Assembly (NCBI GenBank): GCA_041678645.1
Contig: JBAYNT010000002.1
Span: 1-39,148 of the forward strand
Direction: 5' to 3'
Source: Candidatus Dojkabacteria bacterium
GTDB taxonomy: Bacteria; Patescibacteriota; Dojkabacteria; SC72
DNA: 39,148 nt
Made by a program: the position numbers and the translations under genes. This document shows, piece after piece, positions 8,764 to 30,873 of this stretch. Each line of letters opens with the position of its first letter. The stretch's first letter is position 1. The notes under the pieces were generated by a model. It saw only the letters and a program-made list of their open reading frames with translations. It did no database searches and was not told where the DNA came from.

Positions 8764-10125
8764 TTATTTCCTAATTTTCCTCTCAAACCTTTCTCTATAT
8801 CCAAAGAATAGAAAGGCCTGATTAGGCATTTTATATACCCCTAATCCAAAGAAGAGAATTATTACCCCTGTAACTATTATAAGACTGTTAGCAAACACTC
8901 CTGTCTTAGGGAGAGCTTCTTTTGCCACGTCTTTAGTGTCATCTACCGTTGGTGTGGGAGTCACTGGTGGTATTACAGGTGGAGGATCTACAGGAGGTGG
9001 GTCTACGGGTGGAGGATCTACAGGAGGCGGAGGAGAGTATTGCCAAAAAAGACGAGGATAGTCATTACCATCATCTATATACCAGGTACTAGGATTACTA
9101 GAATCAAAATTACTAATACCAAGTATATCCCAACCCTCATCAAAGGTTGACAAAGATTTCATCTCTAATGTTGTCTTACCGGTACCCCCTGCAGAAGTCT
9201 CTACCCCTGCTGTTTGGGTGTCCCAATATGAATGGGTAACTGTTCCCGGCTGATTTTGCCCAATCAATCCTCCCATACTCTCTCCACCTGCACTAATATT
9301 GCCTGTAGAATATGAATTGGTAATAGCTCCAAGAAAATTATCTCCAACCAACCCCCCAACCAGTGAAGACCCACTAACGTCACCATTAGAATATGAATTG
9401 ATAATAGTTCCGTAGAAATTTTGTCCAGTCAATCCTCCAGCGTAACCTCCAGTTGCACTGACAGTACCACTGGAGTATGAGCGATCTATTCTTCCATCAC
9501 TGCTATTATTTCCAACCAGTCCTCCTATCTTATCAACTCCACTAACTACCCCTCTAGAACTTGAAAAGGTAATTGTTCCATTATTACTCCCAACCAACCC
9601 CCCTGCGTTATCTCCTGTTGCATTAATCTCTCCTGTGGAATATGAATTGGTAACTGCACCATTATTACTTCCAATCAGTCCTCCTATGCTGTAAGATCCT
9701 CTAATATTTTCATCTATGAGGCCTAGATTTCGAACAGTTCCAGAGCTCGATCCAAACAAGCCTTGGTTGAATGCAGCCCTGTTAATAAATAAATGGCTTA
9801 TCTTGTGATTACTCCCGTCAAATGTGCCAGTAAAAGGCGCAGAAGCCGTCCCTATTGGTACCCATCCCTCTCCAGTTGTCCATATAGCCTTGTTCGCTAT
9901 ATTCTCATAATGCGAGTCATTTCGAAAATCTAAATCCTTCACTAAGAGATAATCCCCTGCCAAACCGTCTCGTATTGCATATAACTCCTCTAAAGTAGAT
10001 ATTTCTATTGGTGTCTGAGCAGACACCTCGATATCTTTAGAGAACCTTGTCGTTAGAAACAGGCAGAATAACAGTGATAATACAAGAACAAAATATCTTG
10101 AGAAAATTTTAAACGTTTTCGTCAT
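8764..10125 (-). CDS. Secreted GLUG-repeat surface protein with a Pro-rich stalk and an LPXTG (LPKTG) sortase anchor
   Basis: N-terminal signal/TM FKIFSRYFVLVLSLLFCLFL. About six repeats of GGL(V/I)G.N.G.I.NSYS.G. Stalk PPPPVDPPPVDPPPVDPPPVIPPVTPTP. Then LPKTG, the hydrophobic stretch VFANSLIIVTGVIILFFGLGVY and a basic tail. Confidence 0.85.
   Translation of the reverse strand: MTKTFKIFSRYFVLVLSLLFCLFLTTRFSKDIEVSAQTPIEISTLEELYAIRDGLAGDYLLVKDLDFRNDSHYENIANKAIWTTGEGWVPIGTASAPFTGTFDGSNHKISHLFINRAAFNQGLFGSSSGTVRNLGLIDENIRGSYSIGGLIGSNNGAVTNSYSTGEINATGDNAGGLVGSNNGTITFSSSRGVVSGVDKIGGLVGNNSSDGRIDRSYSSGTVSATGGYAGGLTGQNFYGTIINSYSNGDVSGSSLVGGLVGDNFLGAITNSYSTGNISAGGESMGGLIGQNQPGTVTHSYWDTQTAGVETSAGGTGKTTLEMKSLSTFDEGWDILGISNFDSSNPSTWYIDDGNDYPRLFWQYSPPPPVDPPPVDPPPVDPPPVIPPVTPTPTVDDTKDVAKEALPKTGVFANSLIIVTGVIILFFGLGVYKMPNQAFLFFGYRERFERKIRK
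8978..9037. repeat. Tandem 15-bp (30-bp super-unit) repeat encoding (PPPVD)n
   Basis: ggtggaggatctaca / ggaggtgggtctacg / ggtggaggatctaca / ggaggcggaggagag (degenerate), lying inside the GLUG-protein gene. Confidence 0.8.
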
Positions 10126-14961: not shown

Positions 14962-15039
14962 ACAGCACCATGTATTATACATTATCTAACACCATATTTT
15001 CCAATTTGTTTTTTATGCTCATCAAAGTTAAAATATAGT

Positions 15040-19162: not shown

Positions 19163-19193
19163 TTAATCCGCGAGATTGTGTATAATACGAAAC

Positions 19194-19547
19194 ATGAATA
19201 GTATAGTAAATAAAATATATGCGGACACTCTTTCAGATAAATTGCAGGGAACAATCAACTCAGATGGAGGTCTGTTTTCGCAATTTAGTGTAGAAGATGG
19301 AAATGCATTAGGCAACATTACATCTTCGATATTAGCGATTGCTCTACCATTAGCAGGTACTGTGACCTTAGTACTTTTAATTGTTGCTGGTTATAAGATG
19401 ATGAGCAGCCAGGGAAATCCTGATAAACTTAAAGATGCTAGGGAGATGATAACTAATGCAATAATAGGGTTGGTGTTTATACTGTTATCTATAGCAATAT
19501 TACTCTTAATATCGAATGTGTTTAATTTAGATGCTATAAATGCTTAA
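19194..19547 (+). CDS. TrbC/VirB2-like (T4SS_pilin-type) two-helix membrane protein, paralog 1
   Basis: TM1 ...TLVLLIVAGY, loop KMMSSQGNPDKLKDAREMITN, TM2 AIIGLVFILLSIAILLL. The ATG at 19194 is preferred over the TTG at 19176 because TATAAT sits at 19181-19186. Confidence 0.7.
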   Translation: MNSIVNKIYADTLSDKLQGTINSDGGLFSQFSVEDGNALGNITSSILAIALPLAGTVTLVLLIVAGYKMMSSQGNPDKLKDAREMITNAIIGLVFILLSIAILLLISNVFNLDAINA

Positions 19548-19879
19548 TGAAAAAATCAACTAAGAATTTTTTTAAGGGGGGCTTATTTGTAACTATAGGC
19601 GGTCAAGTTGTAGACTTCCCAATAGTTGAGAAATGGAAAGATTTGGATGAAGTAATTCTTGATGTCAAAGACATAATCAATGCTTTTATTATGTTCTCAT
19701 CTGTTGTTGCAGTTGCTATGATTATTGTCTCTGGATATACTTTGATTACTGCTATGGGCAATCCGGACAAGATAGAGCAGGGGCAGAAGACTTTAACAGC
19801 TGCTATCATAGGTTTGATAGTGGTGTGGATAGCAGGTTTGATAATTAAGTTTGTTTTAACCCTGCTTGAAGTTGGCTAA
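19547..19879 (+). CDS. TrbC/VirB2-like pilin, paralog 2
   Basis: ...AMIIVSGYTLITAMGNPDKIEQGQKTLTAAIIGLIVVWIAGLII. Its ATG overlaps the paralog 1 stop (TAATG). Confidence 0.7.
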   Translation: MKKSTKNFFKGGLFVTIGGQVVDFPIVEKWKDLDEVILDVKDIINAFIMFSSVVAVAMIIVSGYTLITAMGNPDKIEQGQKTLTAAIIGLIVVWIAGLIIKFVLTLLEVG

Positions 19880-19881
19880 TA

Positions 19882-19910
19882 TTGATAAGTTAGGGATTCT
19901 TTGGTAAAAT
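19882..19910 (+). promoter_or_regulatory. Sigma-70-like promoter inside the pilin array (TTGATA-N17-TAAAAT with TGn extension)
   Basis: -35 ttgata at 19882-19887, a 17-nt spacer, and an extended -10 tggtaaaat at 19902-19910. It lies 36 nt upstream of the paralog 3 ATG. Confidence 0.5.
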
Positions 19911-19945
19911 TCAAATTATAAATAAATTATTATTAAATTACGAAC

Positions 19946-20245
19946 ATGAATATAGGCAGTATTACAAACCCACTCGATATCCCAACATTGGGAGAATTGG
20001 TAACAAAGGGTTTAAATTTCGCTATTGGTGCAGCCGCAGTAATTTGTGTTGCAGTATTAATCGGAAGTGGTTATATGTATATTACCGCTGCTGGAGATGA
20101 GAGTAAAATTGAGAAAGCTGGTAAATCATTAACATTCGCAATTGTTGGCTTAGCTATAGCATTTATAGCAGTGTTGTTAGTAAACTTTGTCCTTGATGAG
20201 GTTTTGATGAAAACAAAAGCGTTGGTTACTACAGTAATAGCATAA
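19946..20245 (+). CDS. TrbC/VirB2-like pilin, paralog 3
   Basis: ...VAVLIGSGYMYITAAGDESKIEKAGKSLTFAIVGLAIAFIAVLLV. Confidence 0.65.
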   Translation: MNIGSITNPLDIPTLGELVTKGLNFAIGAAAVICVAVLIGSGYMYITAAGDESKIEKAGKSLTFAIVGLAIAFIAVLLVNFVLDEVLMKTKALVTTVIA

Positions 20246-20254
20246 TAGCTTTAT

Positions 20255-20527
20255 ATGTTAAATTTTTCTTTGCTTAATAACCCAACTGATTATGAGAGTC
20301 TAAGTGGTTTCGTAATAAATCTTATTAACCTAGCCATTAGTTTTTCTGTTATCATTGCCGTAGCTGCATTAATACTTGCAGGATTCAAATATATACTAGC
20401 AATGGGTGATGAAGAGAAGGTTGAGAATGCTACTAGATCTCTAATATTTGCCTTAGTAGGCCTGGTAATTGTATTTATTGCACCTTTACTTGTAAAATAC
20501 ATTACATCTTTAATGGGTGTTGAATAG
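20255..20527 (+). CDS. TrbC/VirB2-like pilin, paralog 4
   Basis: ...VAALILAGFKYILAMGDEEKVENATRSLIFALVGLVIVFIAPLLV. Confidence 0.65.
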   Translation: MLNFSLLNNPTDYESLSGFVINLINLAISFSVIIAVAALILAGFKYILAMGDEEKVENATRSLIFALVGLVIVFIAPLLVKYITSLMGVE

Positions 20528-20550
20528 TAATTTTATGCTTTAATAATTAA

Positions 20551-20805
20551 ATGGATGAGCCTGCAAGAATAGAAGAAATATTCACCAGCCTTGATAAGGT
20601 CTTAGACTTCCTTTTTCCTTTTGGTGTAATCCTTGCTCTCGCCTTTGTCGTCGTGGGTGGATATATGTGGATGTCTTCTGCTGGTAATCCAGATAAAATT
20701 AAGCAAGCCCAAGGCACACTTACATGGGCCATCATTGGCTTAATCTTTGTATTAATTTCAGGACTCCTGCTTAAGACTTTGATTGATTACATTGTCGGAA
20801 TGTAG
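20551..20805 (+). CDS. TrbC/VirB2-like pilin, paralog 5
   Basis: ...LAFVVVGGYMWMSSAGNPDKIKQAQGTLTWAIIGLIFVLISGLLL. Confidence 0.7.
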   Translation: MDEPARIEEIFTSLDKVLDFLFPFGVILALAFVVVGGYMWMSSAGNPDKIKQAQGTLTWAIIGLIFVLISGLLLKTLIDYIVGM

Positions 20806-20816
20806 GATAATCTGAT

Positions 20817-22619
20817 ATGAGTAAACTGCCTATTTTTAACATTACCGTTTTTGTTCTTCTTTCTTTTTTTCTTCTTCTTTTTCAGTTTACTCCTGCATAT
20901 TCTAGCCCAGCAGACGAGCTAGAAAAAGATATAGAGCAGACACAGGAGGAGATTAAAAAGAATGAATCTAACCTGCGAAGTATCGAAGCCAGGATTAAAG
21001 AGATCTCAAATAGTAACTATTCTGTTAGTCAGAAAATTAACCTACTAAGTGCTGAAGTAGAGGAGATTGAAACAGTACTAGAGGCAAAGAATAGCGAAAT
21101 AGAGGAGAAGCTGGAAGAAATAGCTCAGAAAGAAGAAGTAATTAGACAGAAGAAAGATTTGGTTGCTTCTGTTTCTAGTCAATTGTATATGGAGAGTAGA
21201 GTAGGTACTGTAGAATTCTTCTTTTCAAATAGTCGTATAGATGATGTTATACATTCTTTTTTTGTTAAGAAGAGCACTATTTCATTACTAAAGGATGAGA
21301 TTACTGAGATTACAGGGGAGTTTGAGAGTCTTACTGTTCTTAAGCAGGAGTTAGAGAGTGAGAAGACTGAATTGGATAGTCAGAAGAAGGATTTAGATGA
21401 CTCTCATAATCTTCTTTTAGCTGAAAGGGCTAAATTGCAAAGAGAGTTAAATGAGACATATAACAGTAGGAATTTGGTTAGTAGGACCATTAATGGTCTT
21501 AAGTCTGAACTTTCCGATTTGCAGTATCATTTACTTGTGGTTAGACAGGGAGGAACTAATGTAAATGCATCTTCAGTACCAGGGAGTACGGATAATAAGT
21601 CTACATTACCTGGGTTTTTGGCAAATGCGCCTAGTGACACATTTGCAGTATTTTCAATAGGGGCATATACGCATAGAAATGGTATGAGTCAGTGGGGTGC
21701 AAGGGCAAGGGCTGATTCAGGGCAATCATATACGCAAATATTAAATCACTACTATCCATCATTTATAATTACATCTGGTTATCCTGAGCCTGCTACAGTT
21801 ACAATTAGAGGGGATGGCCTTGATTGTAATAATAATGCTAAATATTACAATGAGACTTTAAATTTTGATACCTATATGAATCGTATATTTGAGATGCCTG
21901 CCTCTTGGAATCCTGAAGCGGTTAAAGCTCAAGCTATTGCAACAAGGAGTTTCGCTATTCACCAAATAAACAGGAATGGATATATCAGACCGAATCAGTC
22001 AGATCAGGTCTATAAGAACTGTGGTAATGGATCTGGTTGGATAAATGCTGTAAATGCTACAAAGGGTCAAGTCTTAACAAGTGGTGGTAGTGCAGCTTTT
22101 AGTCAGTATGCTGCTGTACATGGAGGTTGGAGTAATACTTCTGGTTGGGATACTACCGATGGTTCAGGTAGTGGTGATTGGATGGCTAGGGCATATGACA
22201 GTATTTCCAGGGTATCTTGGTTTTATCAGACTTGGTATACCTCAGGATCTAGTACTTGTGGTAGGAATCCATGGATGACACAAACAGAGATGTCAGATAT
22301 TGTTAATGCGTACCAGGTATGGGCAGCTAATGGTGGAAGTGATGGTCGTATAGTTCCTGTATATGATGCTTGCCACTCTAGTGGCAATCCATATTCTTAC
22401 TCCGAATTGAGAAAGTTGGCTGCGAAACCGGTATCGTCGATATCTGCCGTTGTCACGAGTAACAGTAACGGTTCAACTGGAAGCATTACTTTCTATACTA
22501 ATGCTGGGAATATAACGATTCCAGCTAGTTATTTTAAGACAATCTATAATATGAGGGCCCCTGGGCATCTTCATATTCCTCAAAACGGGTTTGTGCATAT
22601 AAATATTGAAAAGAAATAA
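20817..22619 (+). CDS. Secreted/anchored coiled-coil protein fused to a SpoIID/LytB-type peptidoglycan lytic transglycosylase domain
   Basis: Signal/TM FNITVFVLLSFFLLLFQFTPAYS. About 200 aa of heptad-rich sequence (EKDIEQTQEEIKKNESNLRSIEARIKE...). SpoIID motifs are NGMSQWGARARADSGQSYTQILNHYYP, IFEMPASWNPEAVKAQAIATRSFA, DQVYKNCG and FSQYAAVHGGWSN. Confidence 0.8.
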   Translation: MSKLPIFNITVFVLLSFFLLLFQFTPAYSSPADELEKDIEQTQEEIKKNESNLRSIEARIKEISNSNYSVSQKINLLSAEVEEIETVLEAKNSEIEEKLEEIAQKEEVIRQKKDLVASVSSQLYMESRVGTVEFFFSNSRIDDVIHSFFVKKSTISLLKDEITEITGEFESLTVLKQELESEKTELDSQKKDLDDSHNLLLAERAKLQRELNETYNSRNLVSRTINGLKSELSDLQYHLLVVRQGGTNVNASSVPGSTDNKSTLPGFLANAPSDTFAVFSIGAYTHRNGMSQWGARARADSGQSYTQILNHYYPSFIITSGYPEPATVTIRGDGLDCNNNAKYYNETLNFDTYMNRIFEMPASWNPEAVKAQAIATRSFAIHQINRNGYIRPNQSDQVYKNCGNGSGWINAVNATKGQVLTSGGSAAFSQYAAVHGGWSNTSGWDTTDGSGSGDWMARAYDSISRVSWFYQTWYTSGSSTCGRNPWMTQTEMSDIVNAYQVWAANGGSDGRIVPVYDACHSSGNPYSYSELRKLAAKPVSSISAVVTSNSNGSTGSITFYTNAGNITIPASYFKTIYNMRAPGHLHIPQNGFVHINIEKK

Positions 22620-22639
22620 TCCATATAGTAAAATACAGG

Positions 22640-22657
22640 TGTATACATATGTATACA
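22640..22657. promoter_or_regulatory. Perfect 18-bp palindrome TGTATACATATGTATACA, the likely operator of the toxin-antitoxin operon
   Basis: I verified it as self-complementary. It contains two GTATACAT half-sites 10 bp apart, just upstream of the TAATAT -10 (22667-22672) and the antitoxin ATG (22680). Confidence 0.6.
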
Positions 22658-22679
22658 TTAAGTTTTTAATATTCAAATA

Positions 22680-22970
22680 ATGGATTATAAAACAAAGGTT
22701 GCACAAACAAGATTAAGCCCCTCTGTAGTTAGAGATATAGAGGTTAAGCTTAAAAAAACTGGCTTGACAATGTCTGATTATCTTAGACTACTTGTATTAA
22801 AAGATTTAGATAGATTACCAATAGAGGTACCTAAAGATTTACCAACTATGGAATTAACTAAGGAGCAGGAGAAAGAATTAGATAAGGCAATGGAGGATGT
22901 AAAAGCGGGTAGGGTAACGGAGGTTGTTAACGTAGATGAGTACTTTAACAATCTTTATAAAAATGAGTAA
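22680..22970 (+). CDS. Type II antitoxin, ribbon-helix-helix (RelB/DinJ/CopG-like)
   Basis: N-terminus KVAQTRLSPSVVRDIEVKLKKTGLTMSDYLRLLVLKDL has a strand-helix-helix pattern. The C-terminus is acidic. 8-nt ATGAGTAA overlap with the toxin gene. Confidence 0.75.
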   Translation: MDYKTKVAQTRLSPSVVRDIEVKLKKTGLTMSDYLRLLVLKDLDRLPIEVPKDLPTMELTKEQEKELDKAMEDVKAGRVTEVVNVDEYFNNLYKNE

Positions 22971-23259
22971 AGATAAATACTCTCTTAATACAACTAAAAG
23001 TGTTGATAAAAAGATTAGGAAATTGGGAAAAGGTAATAAAAGATTAGATAAGGAGATGCGAAGAACTTTCAAGCAATTAGAAAAGAACCCTTTTTATAAG
23101 TCTTTAAAAACACACAAGGTAAATACCGGAAAGTGGGGGGAAGCTTACAGCTCTAGAGTAACTGGGGATATTAGAATTTTATGGTATTTATATGATAAAA
23201 ATCTTTTAATCCTGATTATCGATATAGGGGGTCATTCTGGATCTAAAAGTGTCTATTAA
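22963..23259 (+). CDS. Type II toxin, RelE/ParE superfamily
   Basis: MSKDKYSL...FKQLEKNPFYKSLKTHKV...WGEAYSSRVTGDIRILWYLYDKNLLILIIDIGGHSGSKSVY matches the RelE/ParE pattern (..nP....K.L.G....ysiRv..dyRi.Y......i.i..ig.H...Y). The start at 22963 is preferred over 22936. Confidence 0.75.
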   Translation: MSKDKYSLNTTKSVDKKIRKLGKGNKRLDKEMRRTFKQLEKNPFYKSLKTHKVNTGKWGEAYSSRVTGDIRILWYLYDKNLLILIIDIGGHSGSKSVY

Positions 23260-23315
23260 ATGATTGTCAATTCCTTGTTCTTATAGTAATTTTATGATAT
23301 CTTAACTAATATAGA

Positions 23316-23942
23316 ATGGCACAAAAAACAGATGTACCAAAAAAATTTAGAGATAAGAGATTTGCCTTTATAAGGGCTCTCCCTGAATCCTTTGACCGAG
23401 ACAAAAATGTTGACATCTTCCCTAAAAATGTACGATTCGATAGGAAGGAAGAGGGTGAAGAGATAATAATGATTACCAGAAAACATTGGACAGCATATTT
23501 CACTCATATCCTAGTTGCCATACTCATACCAATAGTTCCAATAGCCCTGTTATTCATTTCATCAAACTCTACAGACATTTATGGAAAAGTTACAATATAT
23601 TTGGGCCTTTTCGTAGCCTCCATTGTTATTTCGGTGAATGTAATTATCACAGCGATAGTGCAGTGGTATTACAACATTTCAATAATTACGGATAAAAGAA
23701 TTCTGTCGCTTAAGGTAACAAGCATATTCCAACACTCATATACCGAGATCCTTTGGAGAAAGATACAGGATGTAAGCCATGACAGTATAGGGCTACTAAG
23801 CTCAATATTTGATATTGGGAACATATATATTGATACTGCTGGAGAAGGTATTGATCTTACCCTGAGATTTGTGCCTAAGCCAAGGAATGTACAGGAAGTG
23901 ATTAATAATTTAGTTGATTTAGCTCATGACGGAGAGCTCTAA
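23316..23942 (+). CDS. Membrane protein with a bacterial PH (bPH_2/YdbS-YdbT-like) domain
   Basis: Two-TM hairpin, then ITDKRILSLKVTSIFQHSYTEILWRKIQDVSHDSIGLLSSIFDIGNIYIDTAGEG, the typical bPH_2 signature. Confidence 0.7.
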   Translation: MAQKTDVPKKFRDKRFAFIRALPESFDRDKNVDIFPKNVRFDRKEEGEEIIMITRKHWTAYFTHILVAILIPIVPIALLFISSNSTDIYGKVTIYLGLFVASIVISVNVIITAIVQWYYNISIITDKRILSLKVTSIFQHSYTEILWRKIQDVSHDSIGLLSSIFDIGNIYIDTAGEGIDLTLRFVPKPRNVQEVINNLVDLAHDGEL

Positions 23943-23950
23943 ATAAAGAT

Positions 23951-24205
23951 ATGAATATTGACTATACAAGCATATATGACAGTATAAACGTAGGAGTATC
24001 TGTAACAGGAAGCCTCGTTAAGGTTCTTGTAGGATTAATCCTTTTTGCCATTGTGTTCTACTCTTTCATGTTTATCCTTAAATTCCGAGTCCTCCAAGAC
24101 ACCGTAGATATATCATCTAGCGCTGTTTCCAAACTAGTGGTTACAGTAAATCTAGTGATATCCCTACTGGGTGCAATATTAGCTTTCATATTAATTCTAC
24201 TCTAA
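23951..24205 (+). CDS. Small 2-TM membrane protein
   Basis: 84 aa with two hydrophobic helices. 8-nt gaps to both neighbours indicate an operon. Confidence 0.5.
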   Translation: MNIDYTSIYDSINVGVSVTGSLVKVLVGLILFAIVFYSFMFILKFRVLQDTVDISSSAVSKLVVTVNLVISLLGAILAFILILL

Positions 24206-24213
24206 AAAACAGC

Positions 24214-26385
24214 ATGCCATTTACTGCCTTACAATTTGTACAAAACAGTAAAAATAGCAACTCCTTTATTGGGGTATTTCGATATCTAAAAACTTCTGGC
24301 GTTAAATCTTCCAAAGAGGGTGAACTATATGGTTTTGTAACAATATCAAGTGAAGGGAATCTCCCTGCAGAAAGAGTCGCACATATAGCGTGGGACGGAG
24401 TAGTAGAAGGATATATGTACTCTCAGAGTAAATCCATCTCAGAATCTCTTAAATCAGGAATACAGGAATTCACAAGAAGACTTAAGGATTTGATGAGAAA
24501 CAGTAAAGAGCTAGAGGAGTCCGGAATAGATGCAAGTCTGGTAATCATCTCAGCTACCAAGGAGGGAGTATATGTTGCCAATTTAGGAGAAAATGAGATT
24601 TATGCCTACAGAGGAGAAAAGGTCGTAGATATTATAGAGATTTTGGAAAAAAATAATGCTCAGACAGCAGGCTTCATAATCTCAGACAGTGATCTTTTAG
24701 TAATTTCTACTGCCTCATTAATTTCGGAGAACATGCATACCTTAGTTGGTAAAAATAGCAGGGAAGATGTTCTGAAAGCTTTAAATCTTCTAGGGAAGAC
24801 ACTACTTCCTAACCAAGCTGTATTTTCTATATATTCAGAAAAGGAAGGTAAAGCGGAACCACTCAATACAGAGCTAATTGAAGAGAAGATCGAGCTGAGG
24901 AGTAGGCCCTTAGAGCCTAAGAAGATAAGGAAAGAAGGTAAAAAAATCGATTTGAAGAGGATACTAGATAGAACTAAGGAGTTTTTTTCTACTATATTTA
25001 CATTTCTGAAAAAGATTTCCATCCCTGTAATCCTATTCTTTAAAAAAACCTTTGCAAAGGTGTGGGTATTCATTAACAAGAAGCTGGGCAATCAGAGATG
25101 GTTTAAAAAATATGCCGCTAAAGCCTCTGAGATGAGACTCAAGAAACGGGCTCCAGGAATAAGAATAGATGGATATAAGGTTAAAGATTTAAGAACACAG
25201 AGGTTTAAGGTCGCTATACTTGGGACAATTGCTGTAATAGTTGCAGTTGCTGGTTATCAATATGCTAGGAAGCAGAAGGTGTTAAGAGAGTTGCATGCTC
25301 AAGCAGACCAGGTTTTTGAAGAAGTCAACAAGAAACTCGATAGTGCTAAAGGAAATCTTGCTACCAATACAAGTGAAGCAGAAAAAGAAGTCTTCTCAGC
25401 GAGCAACCTTTTAAATGATGTCCCGGAGGGGATAGACGAGGAGCATATCAAGAAAATGAATGAATTAGAACAAAAAGTATTGGGTGTAGAAGACAGCCTC
25501 TACAAAAGGGTGGTAGCATCACCTGAATCATTTGTAGGTTTTTTTGAAAATGGTACCGAGCTTACAGATATGAAATATATTCTCGATGATTCTGGTAACG
25601 AAATGTTACTTATTACAGATAAGGGGACTGGTTCTGTATGGAGAGTATCTATATATGACAGAAGTAAGAGTAGGATGGCTGATAACGAGGGCTTAATTAA
25701 ATCTCCTAAATATGTAGATGTAGGTAATGAAGGAGATATTTTCGTGTATGATCAAGAGGTTGGTGTACTTAAGGCAACAGTTTCTGGTTCTGATTGGAGT
25801 CCATTCAAAAAGCTTACAGGAGTAGGTCTTAGCAATATAGGTATTAAAGATGTAGTGGAGTTTGCAGTCCTTACTGCTACTGACAACCTTTACTATCTTG
25901 ATAGAGATAATGCTAGGATCGTAAAAAGTGTTAATTACGGTACAGGGTATAGTAGTACTGTAACTACAGTCATAAATGATGAAAACTTTAGCAAGGCCAA
26001 TGATTTCTTTGCGGATTTTAGTATATATATACTTACCTCAGGTAATGAAGGGGTTTTGAGATACTCTGCAGGTAGTTATGTACCTATTACTGTTGTAGGG
26101 GTTAATGGCGAAATGGGGGAACTAACGTGTGGAAACACTTCTGGGAATATGGACTTCGCGTTCTATATGTTTGATCAGGGAAACAAGAGAGTGTTGAAAT
26201 TAGAAAAGCCAAAAGATAGCTACAATGACAAATTACATCCTAACGAGTTAGTTTTGCTTAATCAGTATGTCTATAGAGGAGATAACAACTCGATGTGGGA
26301 TAATGTAAAAGAAATTGCTGTTGATAGAGCAGAGAAATATATGTATGTATTGGATGGTAATAATGTCTGGAGAATCTCTTTGTAG
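24214..26385 (+). CDS. Bitopic receptor-like protein: degenerate PP2C/SpoIIE-like N-domain, TM, coiled-coil, six-bladed (NHL-like) beta-propeller
   Basis: PP2C-like strings are GVYVANLGENEIYAYRG and DSDLLVISTASL. The TM is FKVAILGTIAVIVAVAGYQY. Six blade-like repeats: LLITDKGTGSVWRV, IFVYDQEVGVLKA, LYYLDRDNARIVKS, IYILTSGNEGVLRY, FYMFDQGNKRVLKL and MYVLDGNNVWRISL. Confidence 0.6.
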   Translation: MPFTALQFVQNSKNSNSFIGVFRYLKTSGVKSSKEGELYGFVTISSEGNLPAERVAHIAWDGVVEGYMYSQSKSISESLKSGIQEFTRRLKDLMRNSKELEESGIDASLVIISATKEGVYVANLGENEIYAYRGEKVVDIIEILEKNNAQTAGFIISDSDLLVISTASLISENMHTLVGKNSREDVLKALNLLGKTLLPNQAVFSIYSEKEGKAEPLNTELIEEKIELRSRPLEPKKIRKEGKKIDLKRILDRTKEFFSTIFTFLKKISIPVILFFKKTFAKVWVFINKKLGNQRWFKKYAAKASEMRLKKRAPGIRIDGYKVKDLRTQRFKVAILGTIAVIVAVAGYQYARKQKVLRELHAQADQVFEEVNKKLDSAKGNLATNTSEAEKEVFSASNLLNDVPEGIDEEHIKKMNELEQKVLGVEDSLYKRVVASPESFVGFFENGTELTDMKYILDDSGNEMLLITDKGTGSVWRVSIYDRSKSRMADNEGLIKSPKYVDVGNEGDIFVYDQEVGVLKATVSGSDWSPFKKLTGVGLSNIGIKDVVEFAVLTATDNLYYLDRDNARIVKSVNYGTGYSSTVTTVINDENFSKANDFFADFSIYILTSGNEGVLRYSAGSYVPITVVGVNGEMGELTCGNTSGNMDFAFYMFDQGNKRVLKLEKPKDSYNDKLHPNELVLLNQYVYRGDNNSMWDNVKEIAVDRAEKYMYVLDGNNVWRISL

Positions 26386-26396
26386 TATAATCTGGA

Positions 26397-26840
26397 ATGA
26401 AAATTGTTAATAAAAAAGCCTATCGCAATTACAGTATTGAGGATTCTTTTGAGGCGGGTATTGTTTTAACGGGTGCTGAGGTTAAATCTATTAGGAGTGG
26501 GAGATGCAACCTTTCTGATGCGTATGTGAAATTTTTAGGTAATGAACTATGGCTTGTTAATGCAGATATAGCTAGATATACTCATGATGGTCGAGAGGAT
26601 TACGATAGTAATAGAAGTAGGAAACTTTTGCTTAAGAAAAAAGAGATGGATACATTAAGAGGTAAAATTAAGCAAGGTAGGCTTGTCTTAATACCTTTGA
26701 GTGTATATACCACTAGAAATCTGATAAAGGTTCAAGTAGGATTAGGCAAGGGTAAGAGAGAGTATGAAAGGAAGGGTGTAGAGAAAGATAGGGATGTCAA
26801 GAGAGAGATGGCTAGAATAAAGAGAAAACACATGGTATAA
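26397..26840 (+). CDS. smpB: SsrA-binding protein SmpB
   Basis: KKAYRNYSIEDSFEAGIVLTGAEVKSIRSGRCNLSDAYVKF...RSRKLLLKKKEMDTL...GRLVLIPLSVY...KVQVGLGKGKREYERK is canonical SmpB. Confidence 0.95.
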   Translation: MKIVNKKAYRNYSIEDSFEAGIVLTGAEVKSIRSGRCNLSDAYVKFLGNELWLVNADIARYTHDGREDYDSNRSRKLLLKKKEMDTLRGKIKQGRLVLIPLSVYTTRNLIKVQVGLGKGKREYERKGVEKDRDVKREMARIKRKHMV

Positions 26841-26852
26841 TTGTTATAGGTT

Positions 26853-27203
26853 ATGAATAATAAATTAGACGGATTTGGTAGTATGAATCCAACAATAGAA
26901 AATGTAATGCCAACAAAAATGGACACTCTAAAGGAGGGGGATCCTGCATTCCCTGTCGAATCAAATGAAATTAATAGTGTTAATCCTGAGATGGGAGAGA
27001 TGAAAGGAATTACCCCTATCCCATCAACCAAAGAATCATCAGAGGTCTCAGATTCTCCGCAGACGGTGTCTGCGTTGCAGGAGGGGCCTACAACTACAAG
27101 AGAGAAGAGAGAAATTGACGCTACAAACGGTTTTGCTTCTATACTAAATGGCAAAAGTGGTGGTAGATTTAGTGTAGATATTACTAAAGTCTCAAAAAAT
27201 TAA
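26853..27203 (+). CDS. Hypothetical low-complexity (likely disordered) protein upstream of the T4SS-type ATPase
   Basis: 116 aa rich in P/S/T/E, with no TM and no recognisable motif. Confidence 0.4.
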   Translation: MNNKLDGFGSMNPTIENVMPTKMDTLKEGDPAFPVESNEINSVNPEMGEMKGITPIPSTKESSEVSDSPQTVSALQEGPTTTREKREIDATNGFASILNGKSGGRFSVDITKVSKN

Positions 27204-27252
27204 CCTTTTTAAAATTCTCAACACATATTTTCTGTGATAAACTATACCTAGT

Positions 27253-29772
27253 ATGGTAACGCAGCAATATTCTAAAGAACAACTTTTTTCACAGGTGGGC
27301 CCTATGCCTACTGAAGAAGTAAGACCTGGCGCACAGGTACAGTACCCCAAAGACTCTTACAACAACAGAGAAATAGATATCCCATGGGGATGGATTACCT
27401 TTGTTTTTCTCTTTATCGGCATCATAATTGCTGTCTACTATATTGTTAAAAAAAGATTAGAGGAAAAAGATAGGGATGATAAAGCTAGCAAATGGGCCCT
27501 ATTTGAAGTAAGAGTACCAAGAACTAATGAGATTGAAATAGGGGAGGCAGAAAAGATGTTCGCTAATCTTATTAGTATTGGCGGAAAAGGTGATGGGTTA
27601 GCTGGTAAATTCACAGTAAACAACTCGATTAGCTTTGAATTGATGGCTATACCAGGAGAGATAAGGTTCTATGTACACTGCCCAAAAAGGTTGGCAGAGA
27701 TGGTTGAGAAACAGATATTAGGTTCATACCAAGACGCAGAGGTTAAGCAGGTCAATGATTATAATATTTTTGATACTAATACCCAGGTTGAATATACGAG
27801 ATTAGAGCTAGAGGAAGAAAATTACTTCCCAGTTAGAACAGCTGAAGGATTTGAAGGTGACCCGCTATCCAACCTACTAAGTAGCTTGAGTAAAATGTCC
27901 CAGGGTGAGGGTGCTATGGTGCAAATCATTATTACTCCTACAGATAATAAATGGCGAAAGAATGGAGAGAAATATATAGGGAAGATCGAATCAAATAATG
28001 CAGATCCTGAGAAAAAGAGAATAGAAGTTTCTCAAGAGAAACTGCAGGCAGTTAACAAGAAGATATCTAAAGCGGGTTTTAAGACAGATATCCGTATAGT
28101 CACGAGTGCTCCTAGTAAAGAATTAGCCAAAATGCATTTGGATAATATTGTTGGTGCTTTCGATCAATTTAGTAATCCAGGAGTTAACAGTTTTAAGAAA
28201 AAGAAAGTAAAGGATAGTGCAAAAGAAGAGTTTATCCATGACGTTATATATCGTAGAACTCCATTGGACTGTAAGACGATTTTGAATACTGAGGAATTAG
28301 CAGCGATATACCATTTCCCTAATAAGGAGATTACCACTCCTAATATCCATTGGCTTCTTTCAAGAGAAATACCTGCCTCTAATGAGATTAATACCGATAT
28401 CAACAGTATTGATACCATTTGGTTGGGCAACAATGAGTATAGAGGAGAGGTAAAAAGAGTTTGTTTTGAAAGAGACGATAGGCGTAGGCACACATATATT
28501 TTAGGGCAGACGGGTACTGGTAAATCATGGCTATTAGCAAGGATGATAGTTCAAGATATCTATAATGGCGACGGAGTGTGTTTTATTGATCCTCACGGAG
28601 ATGCGGCGGAAATGGTGTTAGAGCGTATACCACCAGAAAGAGCAGAGGATGTGATTTACTTTAATGCTGCAGATTTTGAGAGACCATTTGGTTTAAATAT
28701 CATGGAGTTTTATAATGAACAGCATAAACATCAGATTGTAAATAGCTTTATTGCACTTCTTATTCGTATGTTTGATCCTAACAATCAAGGGTTCGCTGGA
28801 CCTATGTTTCAACAGGCTGTACGTAACGCTATGCTCACTGCAATGTCTGAGAAGGGTTCTACGCTCATAGAGGTTGTGCGTATCTTACAAGACGAGCAGT
28901 GGGTCAAGGACAAGTGGTTGCCAATTATTCAAGACGATCTTGTTAGGAGGTATTGGACAGATCAAATAGCTAAGACAGATCAAAAGACAAAATCTGAGAG
29001 TTTAGGCTACTTTATATCCAAGTTTGATAAATTCACCACCAATTTGGCTATTAGAAATATTATTGGTCAGTCAGAATCCTCCTTTGATTTTAGAGACATT
29101 ATGGATAATCAAAAAATCCTTATCGTCAATCTTTCTAAAGGTATGATAGGGGAGGAGAACATGTCTTTTCTTGGGCTATTGCTGGTTCAGAAAATGTTAG
29201 CGGCTGCTTTGAGTAGAGAAAATGTTGAAGAGAAGCAGAGAAAAGATTTCTTTTTCTATGCCGATGAATTCCAAAATTTTGCTACAGACGATTTCTGCAC
29301 AATACTTTCTGAGGCTAGGAAGTATAGGCTAAATCTTACTATGGCCCATCAGTATATTGGGCAATTACCAGAGAATATTAAGAGTGCTGTGTTTGGGAAT
29401 GTTGGTTCTTTACTTATTGCTCGTTGTAGTGCGGAGGATGGTAAGTTTCTAGAGCCTCAGTTTGACCCACTTCTCACTGGAGAGGATCTTATAAATCAAG
29501 GTTTGGCTCATTATTATGTGAAGATGTTAACGAACGGTTCTTATCCTGGACCATTTTCACTTAATACATCCTATGGTAGTAGGTTCCCTATGTCTGGTTT
29601 TGATATGCCAGTTAATCCAGAGGTCCTTGGTCTTATAAAGAAGATGTCTAGAACTAGGTATGGTAGGGATATTAATGTAGTTAATGCTGATATTAAGAGT
29701 AGGGCCGACTTGGATAAACCAACAACGGCTCCTTTGGAAGCTCCTGTAAGTTTCCCACCAATGAATTTTTAG
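27253..29772 (+). CDS. Membrane-anchored FtsK/HerA-superfamily P-loop ATPase, VirD4/TraD/TrwB (T4SS coupling protein)-like
   Basis: N-terminal TM WGWITFVFLFIGIIIAVYYIV. Walker A ILGQTGTGKSW, then VCFIDPHGD. Walker B FFFYADEFQNF, then EARKYRLNLTMAHQYIGQL. I cannot exclude a VirB3-VirB4-like assignment without an HMM search. Confidence 0.7.
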   Translation: MVTQQYSKEQLFSQVGPMPTEEVRPGAQVQYPKDSYNNREIDIPWGWITFVFLFIGIIIAVYYIVKKRLEEKDRDDKASKWALFEVRVPRTNEIEIGEAEKMFANLISIGGKGDGLAGKFTVNNSISFELMAIPGEIRFYVHCPKRLAEMVEKQILGSYQDAEVKQVNDYNIFDTNTQVEYTRLELEEENYFPVRTAEGFEGDPLSNLLSSLSKMSQGEGAMVQIIITPTDNKWRKNGEKYIGKIESNNADPEKKRIEVSQEKLQAVNKKISKAGFKTDIRIVTSAPSKELAKMHLDNIVGAFDQFSNPGVNSFKKKKVKDSAKEEFIHDVIYRRTPLDCKTILNTEELAAIYHFPNKEITTPNIHWLLSREIPASNEINTDINSIDTIWLGNNEYRGEVKRVCFERDDRRRHTYILGQTGTGKSWLLARMIVQDIYNGDGVCFIDPHGDAAEMVLERIPPERAEDVIYFNAADFERPFGLNIMEFYNEQHKHQIVNSFIALLIRMFDPNNQGFAGPMFQQAVRNAMLTAMSEKGSTLIEVVRILQDEQWVKDKWLPIIQDDLVRRYWTDQIAKTDQKTKSESLGYFISKFDKFTTNLAIRNIIGQSESSFDFRDIMDNQKILIVNLSKGMIGEENMSFLGLLLVQKMLAAALSRENVEEKQRKDFFFYADEFQNFATDDFCTILSEARKYRLNLTMAHQYIGQLPENIKSAVFGNVGSLLIARCSAEDGKFLEPQFDPLLTGEDLINQGLAHYYVKMLTNGSYPGPFSLNTSYGSRFPMSGFDMPVNPEVLGLIKKMSRTRYGRDINVVNADIKSRADLDKPTTAPLEAPVSFPPMNF

Positions 29773-29801
29773 AGGGGGTAGATGTATTTTGTCTCAATTT
29801 T

Positions 29802-29810: not shown

Positions 29811-29821
29811 CACGACAGCAT

Positions 29822-29898
29822 GGGAGTATAGCTCAGGTGGTTAGAGCACGGTTCTTATAAAGCCGCGGTCGATGGTTCAAGTCCATCTACTCCCACCA
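29822..29898 (+). tRNA. tRNA-Ile (anticodon UAU), CCA encoded
   Basis: gggagta/tactccc acceptor, D-arm gctc...gagc, anticodon stem cggtt/agccg, loop ctTATaa, T-loop ttcaagt. The body resembles Ile tRNAs. Confidence 0.9.
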
Positions 29899-29976: not shown

Positions 29977-30873
29977 TTATAAATCCCTTAAACTCTTTTC
30001 ACTCTCAGGATTTTTGTTATCTATAAGGTTTAAATATTTCTCTGTGGTAGATAATCTTTTATGACCAACTAATTTAGAAACGGTCACTAAGCTTACCCCG
30101 TTAGCTAAATGGTGTGCTATAAATGTATTCCTAAGATCGTTAACTTTTGCATTCTTAATACTTGCTCTCTCAAAAGCCTTATCTATAGTTGTTCTAATGT
30201 TTCTAACCAGAAGAGGTCTACCATTCTTAGTTATAAAAAGTGTTTCCTCATCTGTCTCTGGTCTAATCTCTAGATAGTCGTCTATTGCCTTCTTCGCTGA
30301 CTTATTAAGAGGGACATTTCTAGAATCATGACTACCGTAAGGAGCAATATAAATGTAATTCAATTTCTTTCCGTCAACATCCTTACTCTTAATATCATCT
30401 ATGGTAAGAGAGGCTAGCTCTCCAATTCTAATCCCTGTCTGAAGCAATATCTCAATGATAGAGTAAAGCCTTATGTCTGCCCTGCTAACATCTCTCAATG
30501 CTCTATACTCCATCTCAGAAAGAACTCTTGGAGGTTTAGTCTCAAACTTAGGATGTGCTAACTTGTCAGAAGGGTTATCTGAGAGCTTACCAACAGAAGC
30601 AAGGTATTTATAAAAGGTCCTTGTGCTATTTATTTTTCTAGAGACACTTTTAGGGGTGTAGTTGTTGTCCTGTAAATATTTCTTATATGCCTCTAAATCT
30701 TCTATAGAGGTATCCTCTAGTTTTATTGTGCCGTTCTCAGAAAAGAAGTTGAGTAACTGCTCAATATCTTTTGAATAGGCGACAGCAGTAGATTCAGCTC
30801 GGCCCTTACTGCTAAGGTCCTCTATGAAATCTCTATGGTACTGGGCAAAATTCTCGTTTTTTACTTTAATCAA
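29977..30873 (-). CDS. Tyrosine site-specific recombinase, XerC/XerD family
   Basis: N-terminal SAM-like AESTAVAYSKDIEQLLNFF. Catalytic region LLQTGIRIGELASL (Arg), RNVPL, NDLRNTFIAHHL, LVGHKRLSTTEKYLNL (His..Tyr). The apparent start is TTG, since no in-frame ATG lies near the N-terminus. Confidence 0.85.
   Translation of the reverse strand: MIKVKNENFAQYHRDFIEDLSSKGRAESTAVAYSKDIEQLLNFFSENGTIKLEDTSIEDLEAYKKYLQDNNYTPKSVSRKINSTRTFYKYLASVGKLSDNPSDKLAHPKFETKPPRVLSEMEYRALRDVSRADIRLYSIIEILLQTGIRIGELASLTIDDIKSKDVDGKKLNYIYIAPYGSHDSRNVPLNKSAKKAIDDYLEIRPETDEETLFITKNGRPLLVRNIRTTIDKAFERASIKNAKVNDLRNTFIAHHLANGVSLVTVSKLVGHKRLSTTEKYLNLIDNKNPESEKSLRDL

Follow-up and report, generated by a model that had tools for sequence, protein, structure and literature searches.

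An ancient pilin array and a VirD4-type coupling ATPase in a conserved, relaxase-free chromosomal locus of Candidatus Dojkabacteria

Patescibacteria have been described as carrying an MPF-FATA-derived T4SS that lacks a relaxase and often lies near dnaA; its pilin arrays comprise 2-11 PF18895 genes, and most of its T4CP genes are distant from virB4 (PMC12102498). Only 148 of the 5,713 T4CP homologues surveyed were near virB4, and the T4CP homologue of S. epibionticum was reported as non-essential, exaptation being raised as a possibility (PMC12102498). This organism cannot grow as an epibiont without its T4SS and pilin array (PMC12857230). Tubular parasite-to-host structures seen in a cultured Microgenomatia strain were suggested to be T4SS pili. 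Dojkabacteria are listed among T4SS-bearing lineages in a preprint, and two of their assemblies were scored VirB4-positive in a survey (Quinonero-Coronel 2025). The locus analysed here is thus no uncatalogued puzzle, the class of system having been published between 2023 and 2025 (PMC12102498; PMC12857230; Wang et al. 2023, as cited there; Quinonero-Coronel 2025).

The locus lies 18-29 kb from dnaA on a Candidatus Dojkabacteria (CPR/Patescibacteria) chromosome, in a window of 39,148 nucleotides, the whole stretch of DNA that was analysed. The pilin-to-ATPase interval spans 10.6 kb, and between the pilin array and the ATPase stand a SpoIID/LytB cell-wall enzyme, smpB, a toxin-antitoxin pair and membrane-protein genes (Table 1). 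Setting the toxin-antitoxin pair aside, the order is addA, five pilins, SpoIID, bPH, DUF5657-like, the 723-aa protein, smpB, a small protein and the ATPase, followed by tRNA-Ile, xer, ftsB, efp, ftsH and polA. This addA-to-polA order is kept in all of the approximately 17 species-level relatives with enough flank, which places the locus at the same site beside smpB across the whole Dojkabacteria class. Profile scans and synteny thus bore out the preliminary description of a chromosomal, relaxase-free T4SS-like locus with interspersed core genes, and the five pilin genes and the VirD4-type coupling ATPase are vertically inherited among these core genes. Promoter and terminator scans of the locus gave matches at chance level.

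Table 1. Coordinates of the features of the locus and its surroundings in the window, with the evidence for each.
Feature	Position	Strand	Evidence or remark
Glug-repeat protein	8764..10125	-	sortase signal LPKTG
VirB2-like pilin paralog 1, 123 aa	19176..19547	+	PF18895 33.8 bits vs GA 26.6; two TM helices
VirB2-like pilin paralog 2, 110 aa	19547..19879	+	PF18895 34.4 bits; two hydrophobic helices
VirB2-like pilin paralog 3, 99 aa	19946..20245	+	PF18895 30.4 bits
VirB2-like pilin paralog 4, 90 aa	20255..20527	+	PF18895 42.3 bits
VirB2-like pilin paralog 5, 84 aa	20551..20805	+	PF18895 42.2 bits
Membrane-anchored coiled-coil SpoIID/LytB-domain peptidoglycan enzyme, 600 aa	20817..22619	+	PF08486 48 bits; TIGR02669
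RHH antitoxin (plausible)	22680..22970	+	NikA-like 27.9 bits vs 27; RelB/ParD below threshold
RelE/YafQ/YoeB-like toxin (plausible)	22936..23259	+	YafQ/YoeB/ParE resemblance, below threshold
bPH_2 membrane protein, two TM helices	23316..23942	+	PF03703 23.1 bits vs GA 22
84-aa membrane protein, two TM helices, weakly DUF5657-like	23951..24205	+	PF18901 E 0.018, below GA
723-aa transmembrane protein	24214..26385	+	AF2 model, mean pLDDT 76.9
smpB, trans-translation factor	26397..26840	+	PF01668 161.5 bits
116-aa protein rich in P, E, S, T	26853..27203	+	directly upstream of ATPase; no family match
Type IV coupling protein (VirD4/TraD/TrwB-like) ATPase, 839 aa	27253..29772	+	three Pfam matches above GA
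tRNA-Ile(TAT)	29822..29898	+	ARAGORN and Rfam
XerC/XerD-type tyrosine recombinase	29977..30873	-	PF00589 and PF02899

Regarding the pilins, the five tandem plus-strand ORFs (19176-20805) all exceed the PF18895 T4SS_pilin gathering score of 26.6, at 30.4-42.3 bits and E values of 4e-7 to 8e-11, as the preliminary assignment of five VirB2/TrbC-like paralogs had anticipated. Each carries a short charged loop between two hydrophobic helices. TrbC/VirB2 PF04956 gave weaker, sub-threshold matches in three of the five, including paralog 4 (25 bits, below GA 27.9), whose close homologues are named "type IV secretory pathway VirB2 component (pilin)" by JGI and "pilin" by NCBI. Paralog 1, for which 19194 is another possible ATG start, scored 36.5 bits against NF045849, a Mycoplasma ICE pilin-like family, below the cut-off of 40. 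Positional orthologues were present in relatives for paralog 2 and were 40-57%, 52-73% and 41-57% identical for paralogs 1, 3 and 5, respectively. Since the pilins are 40-73% identical to their own positional orthologues versus 22-44% between paralogs, the duplication is old and all copies have been retained; by these sequence criteria, the array of VirB2-like pilins formed by the five small genes is ancient. In two other patescibacterial genomes, 6-7 PF18895 genes lie beside VirB6-like (TrbL_3), PrgI, TraC-like/TrsD and VirB4 genes, which ties the pilin family to real T4SS. We know of no PF18895 protein for which a pilus has been demonstrated. The paradox of VirB2-type pilins in a monoderm is real, and the encoded LPXTG protein was confirmed: in the Glug-repeat protein, the sortase signal precedes a TM helix and a basic tail.

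The membrane ATPase recognized earlier as VirD4/TraD-like matches T4SS-DNA_transf (39.3 bits, GA 20.1), DUF87 (35.9, GA 23.2) and TrwB_AAD_bind (25.9, GA 20.5), FtsK_SpoIIIE being absent from its Pfam matches at E <= 0.1. It consists of a single N-terminal TM helix, a DUF8128 domain (PF26449) and a P-loop motor with an invariant Walker A (GQTGTGKS) and Walker B (DEF). Among solved sequences, TrwB and DotL are the closest to it, and its residues 126-769 align (E 6e-41) with a relaxase-adjacent DUF87 ATPase of the B. subtilis plasmid NZ_OX419581.1. An identification as VirB4 was rejected: against the VirB4 of that plasmid, Walker A alone aligns (E 0.057), and hhalign against CPR VirB4 gave a probability of 5%. 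Homology thus assigns the 839-aa protein to the VirD4-type coupling ATPases, of the kind found on monoderm plasmids. Its identity among relatives (65-84%) is comparable to or above that of ftsH, efp, smpB and polA, indicating strong purifying selection.

Profile scans agreed with the earlier reading that the window holds no relaxase, VirB4 or VirB6/VirB8: Pfam and NCBIfam scans of its main ORFs detected no relaxase, VirB4, VirB6, VirB3 or VirB8, and the Pfam labels of called genes 10 kb either side included none of these five. Likewise, phmmer with VirB4, TrsD, PrgI and VirB6 from two complete patescibacterial T4SS loci gave no match in the window and its 10-kb flanks. As two other Dojkabacteria assemblies are tabulated as VirB4-positive in the published survey, and Saccharimonadia-type pilin arrays stand beside VirB6, PrgI, TrsD and VirB4, the VirB4, TrsD, PrgI(VirB3) and VirB6 core is probably encoded elsewhere in the genome. 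The interval, first presented as a T4SS locus without VirB4, is therefore probably not self-contained.

The SpoIID/LytB protein (TIGR02669, 99.6 bits versus a cut-off of 83.3) has an N-terminal TM anchor at residues 4-22 and a coiled coil of about 200 aa. In every Dojkabacteria locus its gene comes after the pilins, with dgkA between in some, and a homologue is also near the ATPase in five CPR loci (L026, L043, L044, L049, L060). A cell-wall lytic enzyme is indeed present as proposed, but it is of the SpoIID type and not homologous to VirB1, so that it is a candidate functional analogue, which may fill the VirB1 slot, or a housekeeping wall hydrolase. The layout of coiled coil and hydrolase also fits a division-type wall hydrolase.

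Three membrane proteins follow, for which a receptor trio had been proposed; only one of them is receptor-like. The 723-aa protein is modelled as a cytoplasmic PP2C-like domain, a TM helix and an extracellular six-blade NHL-type beta-propeller; Foldseek matched the PP2C phosphatases tPphA and PstP (TM 0.54-0.59 on target) and Pizza6/NHL propellers (TM ~0.7), and no Pfam domain was found in any of 29 homologues. From this predicted fold, it is likely an envelope sensor or receptor. The bPH_2 protein (TM helices 65-83 and 97-115), which keeps its place in every Dojkabacteria locus, and the 84-aa protein, with positional orthologues in 16-20 loci, are not receptor-like. Together with SpoIID, these three are lineage-conserved envelope genes.

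The smpB gene, confirmed in the middle of the locus and also upstream of the ATPase gene in L025 and L026 as in Dojkabacteria, is a housekeeping gene in conserved order and no T4SS part. The 116-aa protein is probably disordered; almost every Dojkabacteria locus has, before the ATPase, a positional equivalent of 94-116 aa that is scarcely conserved in sequence, and in many more distant CPR loci this slot holds a different protein of 140-210 aa with a conserved helical C-terminus. The toxin-antitoxin pair, whose genes overlap by 35 nt, is plausible from weak family matches but does not belong to the T4SS set in which it had been counted: it is missing from every related locus, where the SpoIID-bPH gap is 15-92 nt, and its GC content is 0.30 versus 0.365 for the locus. 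It is a strain-specific insertion outside the conserved locus.

On the whole, we consider it fairly probable that the locus holds the ancient pilin array and coupling ATPase of a T4SS whose core is encoded elsewhere, acting as follows. The two-helix pilins would enter the membrane, from which the VirB4/VirB6 platform would pull them out and polymerise them into a wall-crossing tube. This would require a local opening of the peptidoglycan, for which the adjacent SpoIID-type enzyme would be the best candidate. The five diverged paralogs could supply distinct subunits, e.g. major, minor and tip, or host-specific variants. Finally, a hexameric coupling ATPase, anchored by its single TM helix, would pass macromolecular substrate to or from the channel at host-cell contact; effectors, DNA or host RNA are candidate cargoes, and transport could run in either direction.

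Shared gene order is, however, weak evidence of shared function, as the housekeeping flanks are equally syntenic. It is possible, though we think it rather unlikely, that the pilin array is the only T4SS part here and that the rest is unrelated or exapted. SpoIID would then be a general or division wall hydrolase, its coiled coil and hydrolase recalling the architecture of FtsEX-regulated hydrolases; the bPH, DUF5657-like and PP2C/NHL proteins would form an unrelated envelope-signalling module; and the DUF8128 ATPase would serve a T4SS-independent role, e.g. nucleic-acid uptake or segregation, possibly with the adjacent Xer. The ATPase is in fact conserved CPR-wide, as a rule with housekeeping genes around it: in most of the distant CPR loci its neighbours are dnaX, cysS, corA, dnaJ and dus, and pilins are absent from its vicinity. 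Its ftsH- and efp-like conservation points the same way, as do the xer gene, which lies downstream of the ATPase in Dojkabacteria, L025 and L026 and at another point of the locus in a few others, the unrelated housekeeping genes (dgkA, sbcCD, GAPDH or RNR) that break up the equivalent interval in other lineages, and the published scarcity near virB4, non-essentiality and possible exaptation of T4CP homologues (PMC12102498). Against this, the closest plasmid homologue is a relaxase-adjacent coupling-type ATPase in a conjugation cluster, and FtsK_SpoIIIE is not among the Pfam matches. Moreover, a pilin-like gene lies directly 3' of the coupling-ATPase gene in the distant CPR loci L040 and L051, and SpoIID follows it within 1.5 kb in L043.

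A self-contained, VirB4-independent apparatus, in which pilins, SpoIID, membrane proteins and the DUF8128 ATPase would form a minimal pilus or translocon with the coupling-type ATPase as sole motor, appears improbable. The lack of VirB4, VirB6 and VirB3 in the window and 10 kb either side would fit it, as would the conservation of the module as one block throughout the class and, in part, in L026. The best Foldseek matches of the ATPase model are full-length TrwK/VirB4 chains (E 4.5e-12), but with TM scores of only ~0.22 and a model mean pLDDT of 58, whereas sequence and profile tests group the ATPase with T4CPs, away from VirB4. The published VirB4-positive scores also speak against such an apparatus. 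To our knowledge, every characterised VirB2-type pilus needs VirB4.

The signs of an ordinary ICE (relaxase, VirB4/VirB6, flanking repeats, patchy presence) were looked for in the window with 10 kb either side and among the relatives, and not found. The tRNA-Ile is at the same place in six of six relatives checked, with variable genes inserted around it in some, and was read as a core gene conserved behind the ATPase, not as an att site. The recombinase scored ~155 bits with XerC/XerD models, below equivalog cut-offs, and was rejected as an ICE integrase: it is a chromosomal gene, 69-88% identical and syntenic in relatives. The composition check showed a locus GC of 0.365 that matches the flanks and tetranucleotide usage in line with them (r = 0.98 to the window), and the 14-33 kb region holds no repeat longer than 32 nt at ~75% identity, which is chance level; with no flanking repeats, the locus is therefore not an ICE. 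A decayed element inserted at tRNA-Ile via the adjacent recombinase, which then lost relaxase and VirB4, might be read into the tRNA and recombinase adjoining the ATPase, the variable genes around the tRNA and the NikA-like RHH protein with its toxin, yet it is barely credible, being contradicted by an order and position identical in all Dojkabacteria relatives and kept partly into Levyibacteria-type genomes, by the Xer conservation, composition and lack of direct repeats, by core genes (smpB, tRNA-Ile) inside the interval, and by the NikA-like match falling in the strain-specific insertion. Domesticated T4SS parts, as first suggested, are preferred to it because the locus is fixed at its site across the class.

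Compared with known systems, PF18895 pilin arrays of Saccharimonadia-type loci adjoin VirB6, PrgI, TrsD and VirB4, whereas the Dojkabacteria array here is without such neighbours. In the Tcp-type conjugative plasmid of B. subtilis (NZ_OX419581.1), the ATPase homologue sits in the conjugation gene cluster. The locus is no new kind of system but a further example of the published relaxase-free chromosomal T4SS.

From nfo/addA (about 15000-19162) through the end of the ATPase gene at 29772, all genes of the locus lie on the + strand and are spaced 0-66 nt apart, in a window of ~36% GC. Pfam and NCBIfam scans of the window ORFs gave family matches across the locus, and the gene inventory of the preliminary description for the 19-30 kb interval was therefore essentially correct. 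Promoter-like and terminator-like sites did not exceed shuffled expectation in the scan and offer no guide to operon structure.

Features of the locus and its flanks, with positions in the window
Feature	Position	Strand	Remarks
dnaA	753-2222		near window start
dnaN	2691-3815
Five T4SS_pilin (PF18895) ORFs	19176-20805	+	each above the Pfam gathering score
SpoIID/LytB-domain protein, 600 aa	after the pilins		N-terminal anchor and long coiled coil
RHH and RelE/YafQ-like pair, overlapping	after the SpoIID gene		weak matches
bPH_2 membrane protein	after the RHH/RelE-like pair
84-aa protein	after the bPH_2 gene		two TM helices
723-aa protein	after the 84-aa protein gene
smpB	26397-26840	+
116-aa protein	26853-27203		between smpB and the ATPase gene; no family match
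839-aa ATPase	27253-29772	+	thresholds of T4SS-DNA_transf, DUF87 and TrwB_AAD_bind passed
tRNA-Ile, then XerC/D-like recombinase	downstream of the ATPase gene		recombinase on the opposite strand

All five tandem genes (5/5) belong to the PF18895 family and encode proteins of 84-123 aa, with two hydrophobic helices separated by a short charged loop. Matches to TrbC/VirB2 (PF04956) were sub-threshold in three of them (best 25.0 bits versus 27.9, the others ≤17), and a separate long signal peptide was not evident in paralogs 3-5. The Mycoplasma ICE family NF045849 ('Mbov_0395 pilin-like conjugal transfer protein') matched all five, likewise below its cut-off (19-36 bits, cut-off 40), which suggests that other monoderm MPF-FATA systems may not lack VirB2-like proteins altogether. 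In two complete Saccharimonadia-type T4SS loci (L089 and L090), arrays of 6-7 PF18895 genes directly adjoin VirB6-like, PrgI, TraC-like/TrsD and VirB4 genes, confirming that this family belongs to genuine T4SS. The positional orthologue of each pilin in relatives is 40-73% identical, versus 22-44% between paralogs, and the array appears to be old, with every copy retained. Tubular structures in a cultured Microgenomatia strain are the only hint of pilus polymerisation for such predicted pilins.

Analysis of the 839-aa ATPase revealed the signature of a type IV coupling protein (T4CP) motor, with scores above the gathering thresholds for both T4SS-DNA_transf (PF02534, 39.3 bits) and TrwB_AAD_bind (PF10412, 25.9 bits). 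Its best PDB sequence matches were TrwB and DotL, and Walker A and Walker B were invariant in 32-34 homologues. The N-terminal membrane anchor comprises one predicted hydrophobic helix (residues 47-65) followed by a basic stretch. Among the matches listed in a tblastn search against all plasmids, haloarchaeal 'TraM-recognition / conjugative DNA transfer' and Bacillus 'DUF87' proteins showed 22-28% identity over 72-82% of its length. The homologue on B. subtilis plasmid NZ_OX419581.1 (WP_144625398.1, DUF87) is encoded directly upstream of a replication-relaxation family relaxase and just before a TcpD/TcpE/VirB4-type transfer operon. Residues 126-769 of the ATPase align with this plasmid protein (25% over about 640 residues, E 6e-41), an alignment that takes in the N-terminal DUF8128 domain as well as the P-loop motor. 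With the VirB4 of the same plasmid, Walker A alone aligned by BLASTP (E 0.057), and profile-profile comparison with hhalign gave probabilities of 5% for CPR VirB4 and 0.4% for TrsD. A hidden VirB4 was ruled out, as the similarity to plasmid and CPR VirB4 and to TrsD ends at the P-loop by BLASTP, phmmer and hhalign. Foldseek ranked TrwK/VirB4 at the top, but with a TM of about 0.22 and from an AF2 model of low confidence (pLDDT 58), and this ranking was set aside. On sequence grounds, the ATPase is a coupling protein and not a VirB4. The usual relaxase partner of a T4CP was found neither in the window nor among the called genes within 10 kb on each side.

The ATPase family extends across the CPR at 35-48% identity (Levyibacteria, Magasanikbacteria, Kuenenbacteria, Peregrinibacteria, Gracilibacteria-labelled loci and others), where its gene sits amid dnaX, cysS, corA, dnaJ and dus. 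Among Dojkabacteria, its conservation is comparable to or above that of ftsH, efp, smpB and polA. A small-protein gene lies just upstream of the DUF8128 ATPase gene in most of the related loci (L001-L079). The Dojkabacteria protein is 94-116 aa long, P/E/S/T-rich and hardly conserved. The upstream protein of many distant CPR loci is 140-210 aa long, its gene start often overlaps the ATPase gene, and it has a strongly conserved, helical C-terminus (motif ...WL..IPGVNkFFLEQEAKIKtDKI...) and no Pfam family; alignments of the two showed no evident common motif.

The locus had been described as relaxase-free and as having no VirB4 or VirB6 in view, which held in Pfam/NCBIfam scans, precomputed labels and phmmer searches alike. 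Scans of the window's main ORFs against Pfam and NCBIfam found no relaxase, VirB4, VirB6, VirB3/PrgI, VirB8 or TrsD, and PrgI, TrbL and TraC-like gave no Pfam matches among the window ORFs. The same core and relaxase families were not among the precomputed Pfam labels of the called genes 10 kb on each side, extensions that hold only housekeeping, T4P (PilM) and rRNA-region genes. The VirB4, TrsD, PrgI and VirB6 sequences of L089/L090 had no phmmer match in the window or in the 79 related loci (E ≤ 0.01), and jackhmmer with a Bacillus VirB4 found nothing in these 79 loci. Two Dojkabacteria assemblies are VirB4-positive in Table S1 of Quinonero-Coronel et al. 2025 (PMC12102498), and a preprint places Dojkabacteria among the T4SS-bearing lineages. 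This genome most likely encodes its VirB4, VirB6, PrgI and TrsD core in another region.

The unannotated ORFs at 4556-7491 were considered as hidden T4SS parts and rejected, since none matched the T4SS query sequences. These four conserved + strand ORFs without family follow dnaN and a response regulator, and encode membrane proteins of 122 aa (four TM helices) and 246 aa, a pilin-like protein of 184 aa and a protein of 342 aa (eight TM helices; weak MASE3-like match); in the related locus L083, an Exo_endo_phos gene is inserted among them. At its N-terminus (KYSILEVLVVLSAISIVV), the 184-aa protein (5955-6509, +) is type IV pilin/pseudopilin-like, and it matches XpsH weakly; PilM_2 is encoded about 10 kb to the left of dnaA (L080, 1-591). 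Together, these two genes indicate that type IV pilus genes are present in the genome in addition to, and apart from, the VirB2-like array.

Other observations concern the remainder of the window and its right flank. A Glug-repeat surface protein (8764-10125, -) ends in a sortase signal, in which LPKTG precedes a hydrophobic helix and basic tail, and this fits a monoderm envelope. The 93-aa Cys-rich protein at 11051-11332 (-) resembles Pacifastin or VWC domains, families unusual for a bacterium. Within the window, tetranucleotide fit is lowest (r about 0.90) and GC highest (0.42) at 7-12 kb. The tmRNA (8272-8686, +; 114.5 bits in Rfam) and its partner gene smpB are 18 kb apart; the tag predicted by ARAGORN is unusually long, with 30 residues ending ...YNFA, and may reflect a mis-set resume codon. 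Some 2.5-9 kb past the right end of the window, beyond polA, an HTH gene and an ATP-dependent DNA ligase, the four loci L084-L087 have a long stretch without called genes, which in two of the four contains a LAGLIDADG homing endonuclease ORF. This stretch is probably an rRNA operon with an intron; such operons are common in the CPR.

To place the locus among its relatives, homology to the ATPase was scanned with one genome per species, giving 79 loci. The closest ~24 are 65-84% identical (94% for one short fragment) and are mostly labelled Candidatus Dojkabacteria, the others being mislabelled MAGs of the same clade. All close loci with enough flank share one gene order: addA, five (once six) pilins, SpoIID, bPH, DUF5657-like and 723-aa genes, then smpB, the small protein, ATPase, tRNA-Ile, xer, ftsB, efp, ftsH and polA. 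The comparison proposed at the smpB site thus found the locus conserved in every such relative, and that of GC and tetranucleotide usage detected no difference between the locus and the remaining window (r = 0.98), sliding windows staying within the window-wide spread. No flanking direct repeats above chance were found over 14-33 kb, and the recombinase and tRNA-Ile are conserved core genes in relatives, not an integrase and att site. The features of an ICE, namely a relaxase with VirB4 and an integrase with att repeats, patchy distribution and atypical composition, were found neither in these comparisons nor in the scans of the window and the 10 kb on each side. The decayed ICE offered as an alternative in the preliminary description is ruled out by the class-wide fixed gene order, the flank-like composition, the chance-level repeats and the core nature of xer and tRNA-Ile. 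The locus is relaxase-free, chromosomal, vertically inherited and origin-proximal, with synteny across the class.

Around tRNA-Ile(TAT), between the ATPase and xer genes (29773-29976 in the window, where there are no extra genes), different Dojkabacteria carry different additional genes (L008, L009, L011, L013, L017, L018, L022 and L023), up to three in L022, one of them encoding a 1049-aa protein. Judged from these sequences, the interval behaves as a small insertion hot spot within an otherwise rigid gene order.

The RHH and RelE/YafQ-like genes overlap by 35 nt, putative antitoxin first, with a GC of 0.30. The RHH protein exceeded the NikA-like cut-off (27.9 bits versus 27), and the matches of the putative toxin were sub-cut-off (YafQ 23 versus 30, YoeB 23 versus 51.8). 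The pair is missing from every relative examined, where the gap between SpoIID and bPH is 15-92 nt, and it is a recent insertion in the present strain.

Regarding the wall enzyme, the catalytic domain is SpoIID/LytB, not the SLT/lysozyme-like or CHAP domain of VirB1-type proteins, and the enzyme is a candidate for a VirB1-like role by analogy. The AF2 model of the 723-aa protein (mean pLDDT 77) has a predicted receptor-like layout, with a PP2C-like domain on the cytoplasmic side joined through a disordered linker to a membrane helix and then a six-blade NHL-type propeller. The Pfam PP2C match was below threshold (E 0.018) and the canonical metal-binding motif DGxGG was not evident in this protein, which may therefore be a pseudo-phosphatase. 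The 723-aa, bPH and small two-TM proteins are Dojkabacteria-specific, with faint relatives in the distant loci L025 and L026.

We propose that the pilin array and the coupling-type ATPase would be two dispersed parts of the chromosomal T4SS repertoire of this lineage. Within the locus, the SpoIID-type enzyme would be the strongest candidate to open the wall for a pilus, and the PP2C/NHL protein may be a sensor of the envelope or of the host; smpB is a bystander and the putative toxin-antitoxin pair an insertion. We infer that the pilins are inserted, that VirB4 drives their polymerisation and that the T4CP handles substrate. The main rival, in which the ATPase and the envelope genes have roles unconnected with the T4SS, is the less probable explanation and remains substantial. 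Common gene order is weak evidence for common function in these compact, collinear genomes, where unrelated genes also occur inside the interval: dgkA in some Dojkabacteria and sbcCD in L026 lie between the pilins and the SpoIID gene, and GAPDH and RNR lie between smpB and the ATPase gene in L025. Some evidence the other way comes from distant CPR, with a gene that has a pilin-like match directly 3' of the ATPase gene in two loci and a SpoIID gene ≤1.5 kb downstream of it in another. Very improbable is a VirB4-independent, self-contained minimal conduit made of the five pilins, the SpoIID enzyme, the small membrane proteins and the DUF8128 ATPase, with the PP2C/NHL protein as a host-contact gating sensor; if true, a T4CP alone would power this T4SS-derived machine. 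Of the earlier interpretation, domestication rather than an ICE stands on synteny, composition and repeats, but a likely self-contained system does not, given the published class and the VirB4-positive Dojkabacteria assemblies. Nor is the locus uncatalogued, since this class of system has been published (Wang et al. 2023; PMC12102498).

Effector delivery, DNA uptake and host-RNA acquisition have been proposed in the literature as functions of patescibacterial T4SS; the system is essential in the single species in which this was tested, and no other monoderms have such pilins. In Southlakia epibionticum, a T4SS with a six-gene VirB2-like pilin array is essential for epibiotic growth (Wang et al. 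2023, as related in PMC12857230). A survey of 3,035 genomes (Quinonero-Coronel et al. 2025, PMC12102498) described a VirB4 clade that is monophyletic and falls within MPF-FATA, a near absence of relaxases, dnaA frequently close to the T4SS, PF18895 arrays of 2-11 genes with a mean identity of about 25%, and 5,713 T4CP homologues, only 148 of them near virB4. Like the chromosomal T4SS of Patescibacteria (S. epibionticum ML1, TM7x; PMC12102498, PMC12857230), the Dojkabacteria locus combines a monoderm host and no relaxase with a divergent array of PF18895 genes, five here, in a chromosomal, vertically inherited, origin-proximal position, and its T4CP homologue is encoded away from virB4. In Saccharimonadia-type loci, the array adjoins VirB6, PrgI, TrsD, VirB4 and an M23 peptidase, none of which is in view here, whereas the present array is flanked by addA and the SpoIID-type enzyme and precedes the T4CP-like gene by 6.4 kb.

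Compared individually, the components also depart from their known counterparts. The pilins share size, paired hydrophobic helices and charged loop with VirB2/TrbC (PF04956) and NF045849 proteins, but miss both curated cut-offs, are retained as five paralogs and, unlike those of diderms, have no outer membrane to cross. The wall enzyme resembles the VirB1 transglycosylases and CHAP or M23 hydrolases of T4SS loci as a peptidoglycan-cleaving enzyme encoded beside T4SS structural genes, and differs in its SpoIID/LytB domain, N-terminal anchor and long coiled coil, and in an adjacency broken by dgkA in some relatives. The 723-aa protein recalls Mycobacterium tuberculosis PstP and the PknD-type NHL sensor in its predicted PP2C-like fold, single TM helix and extracellular six-blade propeller, unlike them lacking an above-threshold Pfam PP2C match; to our knowledge, such membrane proteins have no link to T4SS. 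The ATPase is membrane-anchored with intact Walker A/B motifs like the Gram-positive Tcp/MPF-FATA plasmid ATPase and, more distantly, TrwB, VirD4 and DotL. Unlike the plasmid enzyme, it is chromosomal, CPR-wide and without a relaxase partner, is preceded by a small, probably disordered protein, and has one predicted TM helix where VirD4 proteins typically have two. The locus thus reveals no new kind of system; its value lies in comparative data for a known one, to which it adds a variant arrangement with the pilin array apart from the VirB4 block, and candidate partners in the coiled-coil SpoIID-type wall enzyme, the PP2C-like/NHL-propeller transmembrane protein and the highly conserved coupling-type ATPase with its small upstream partner.
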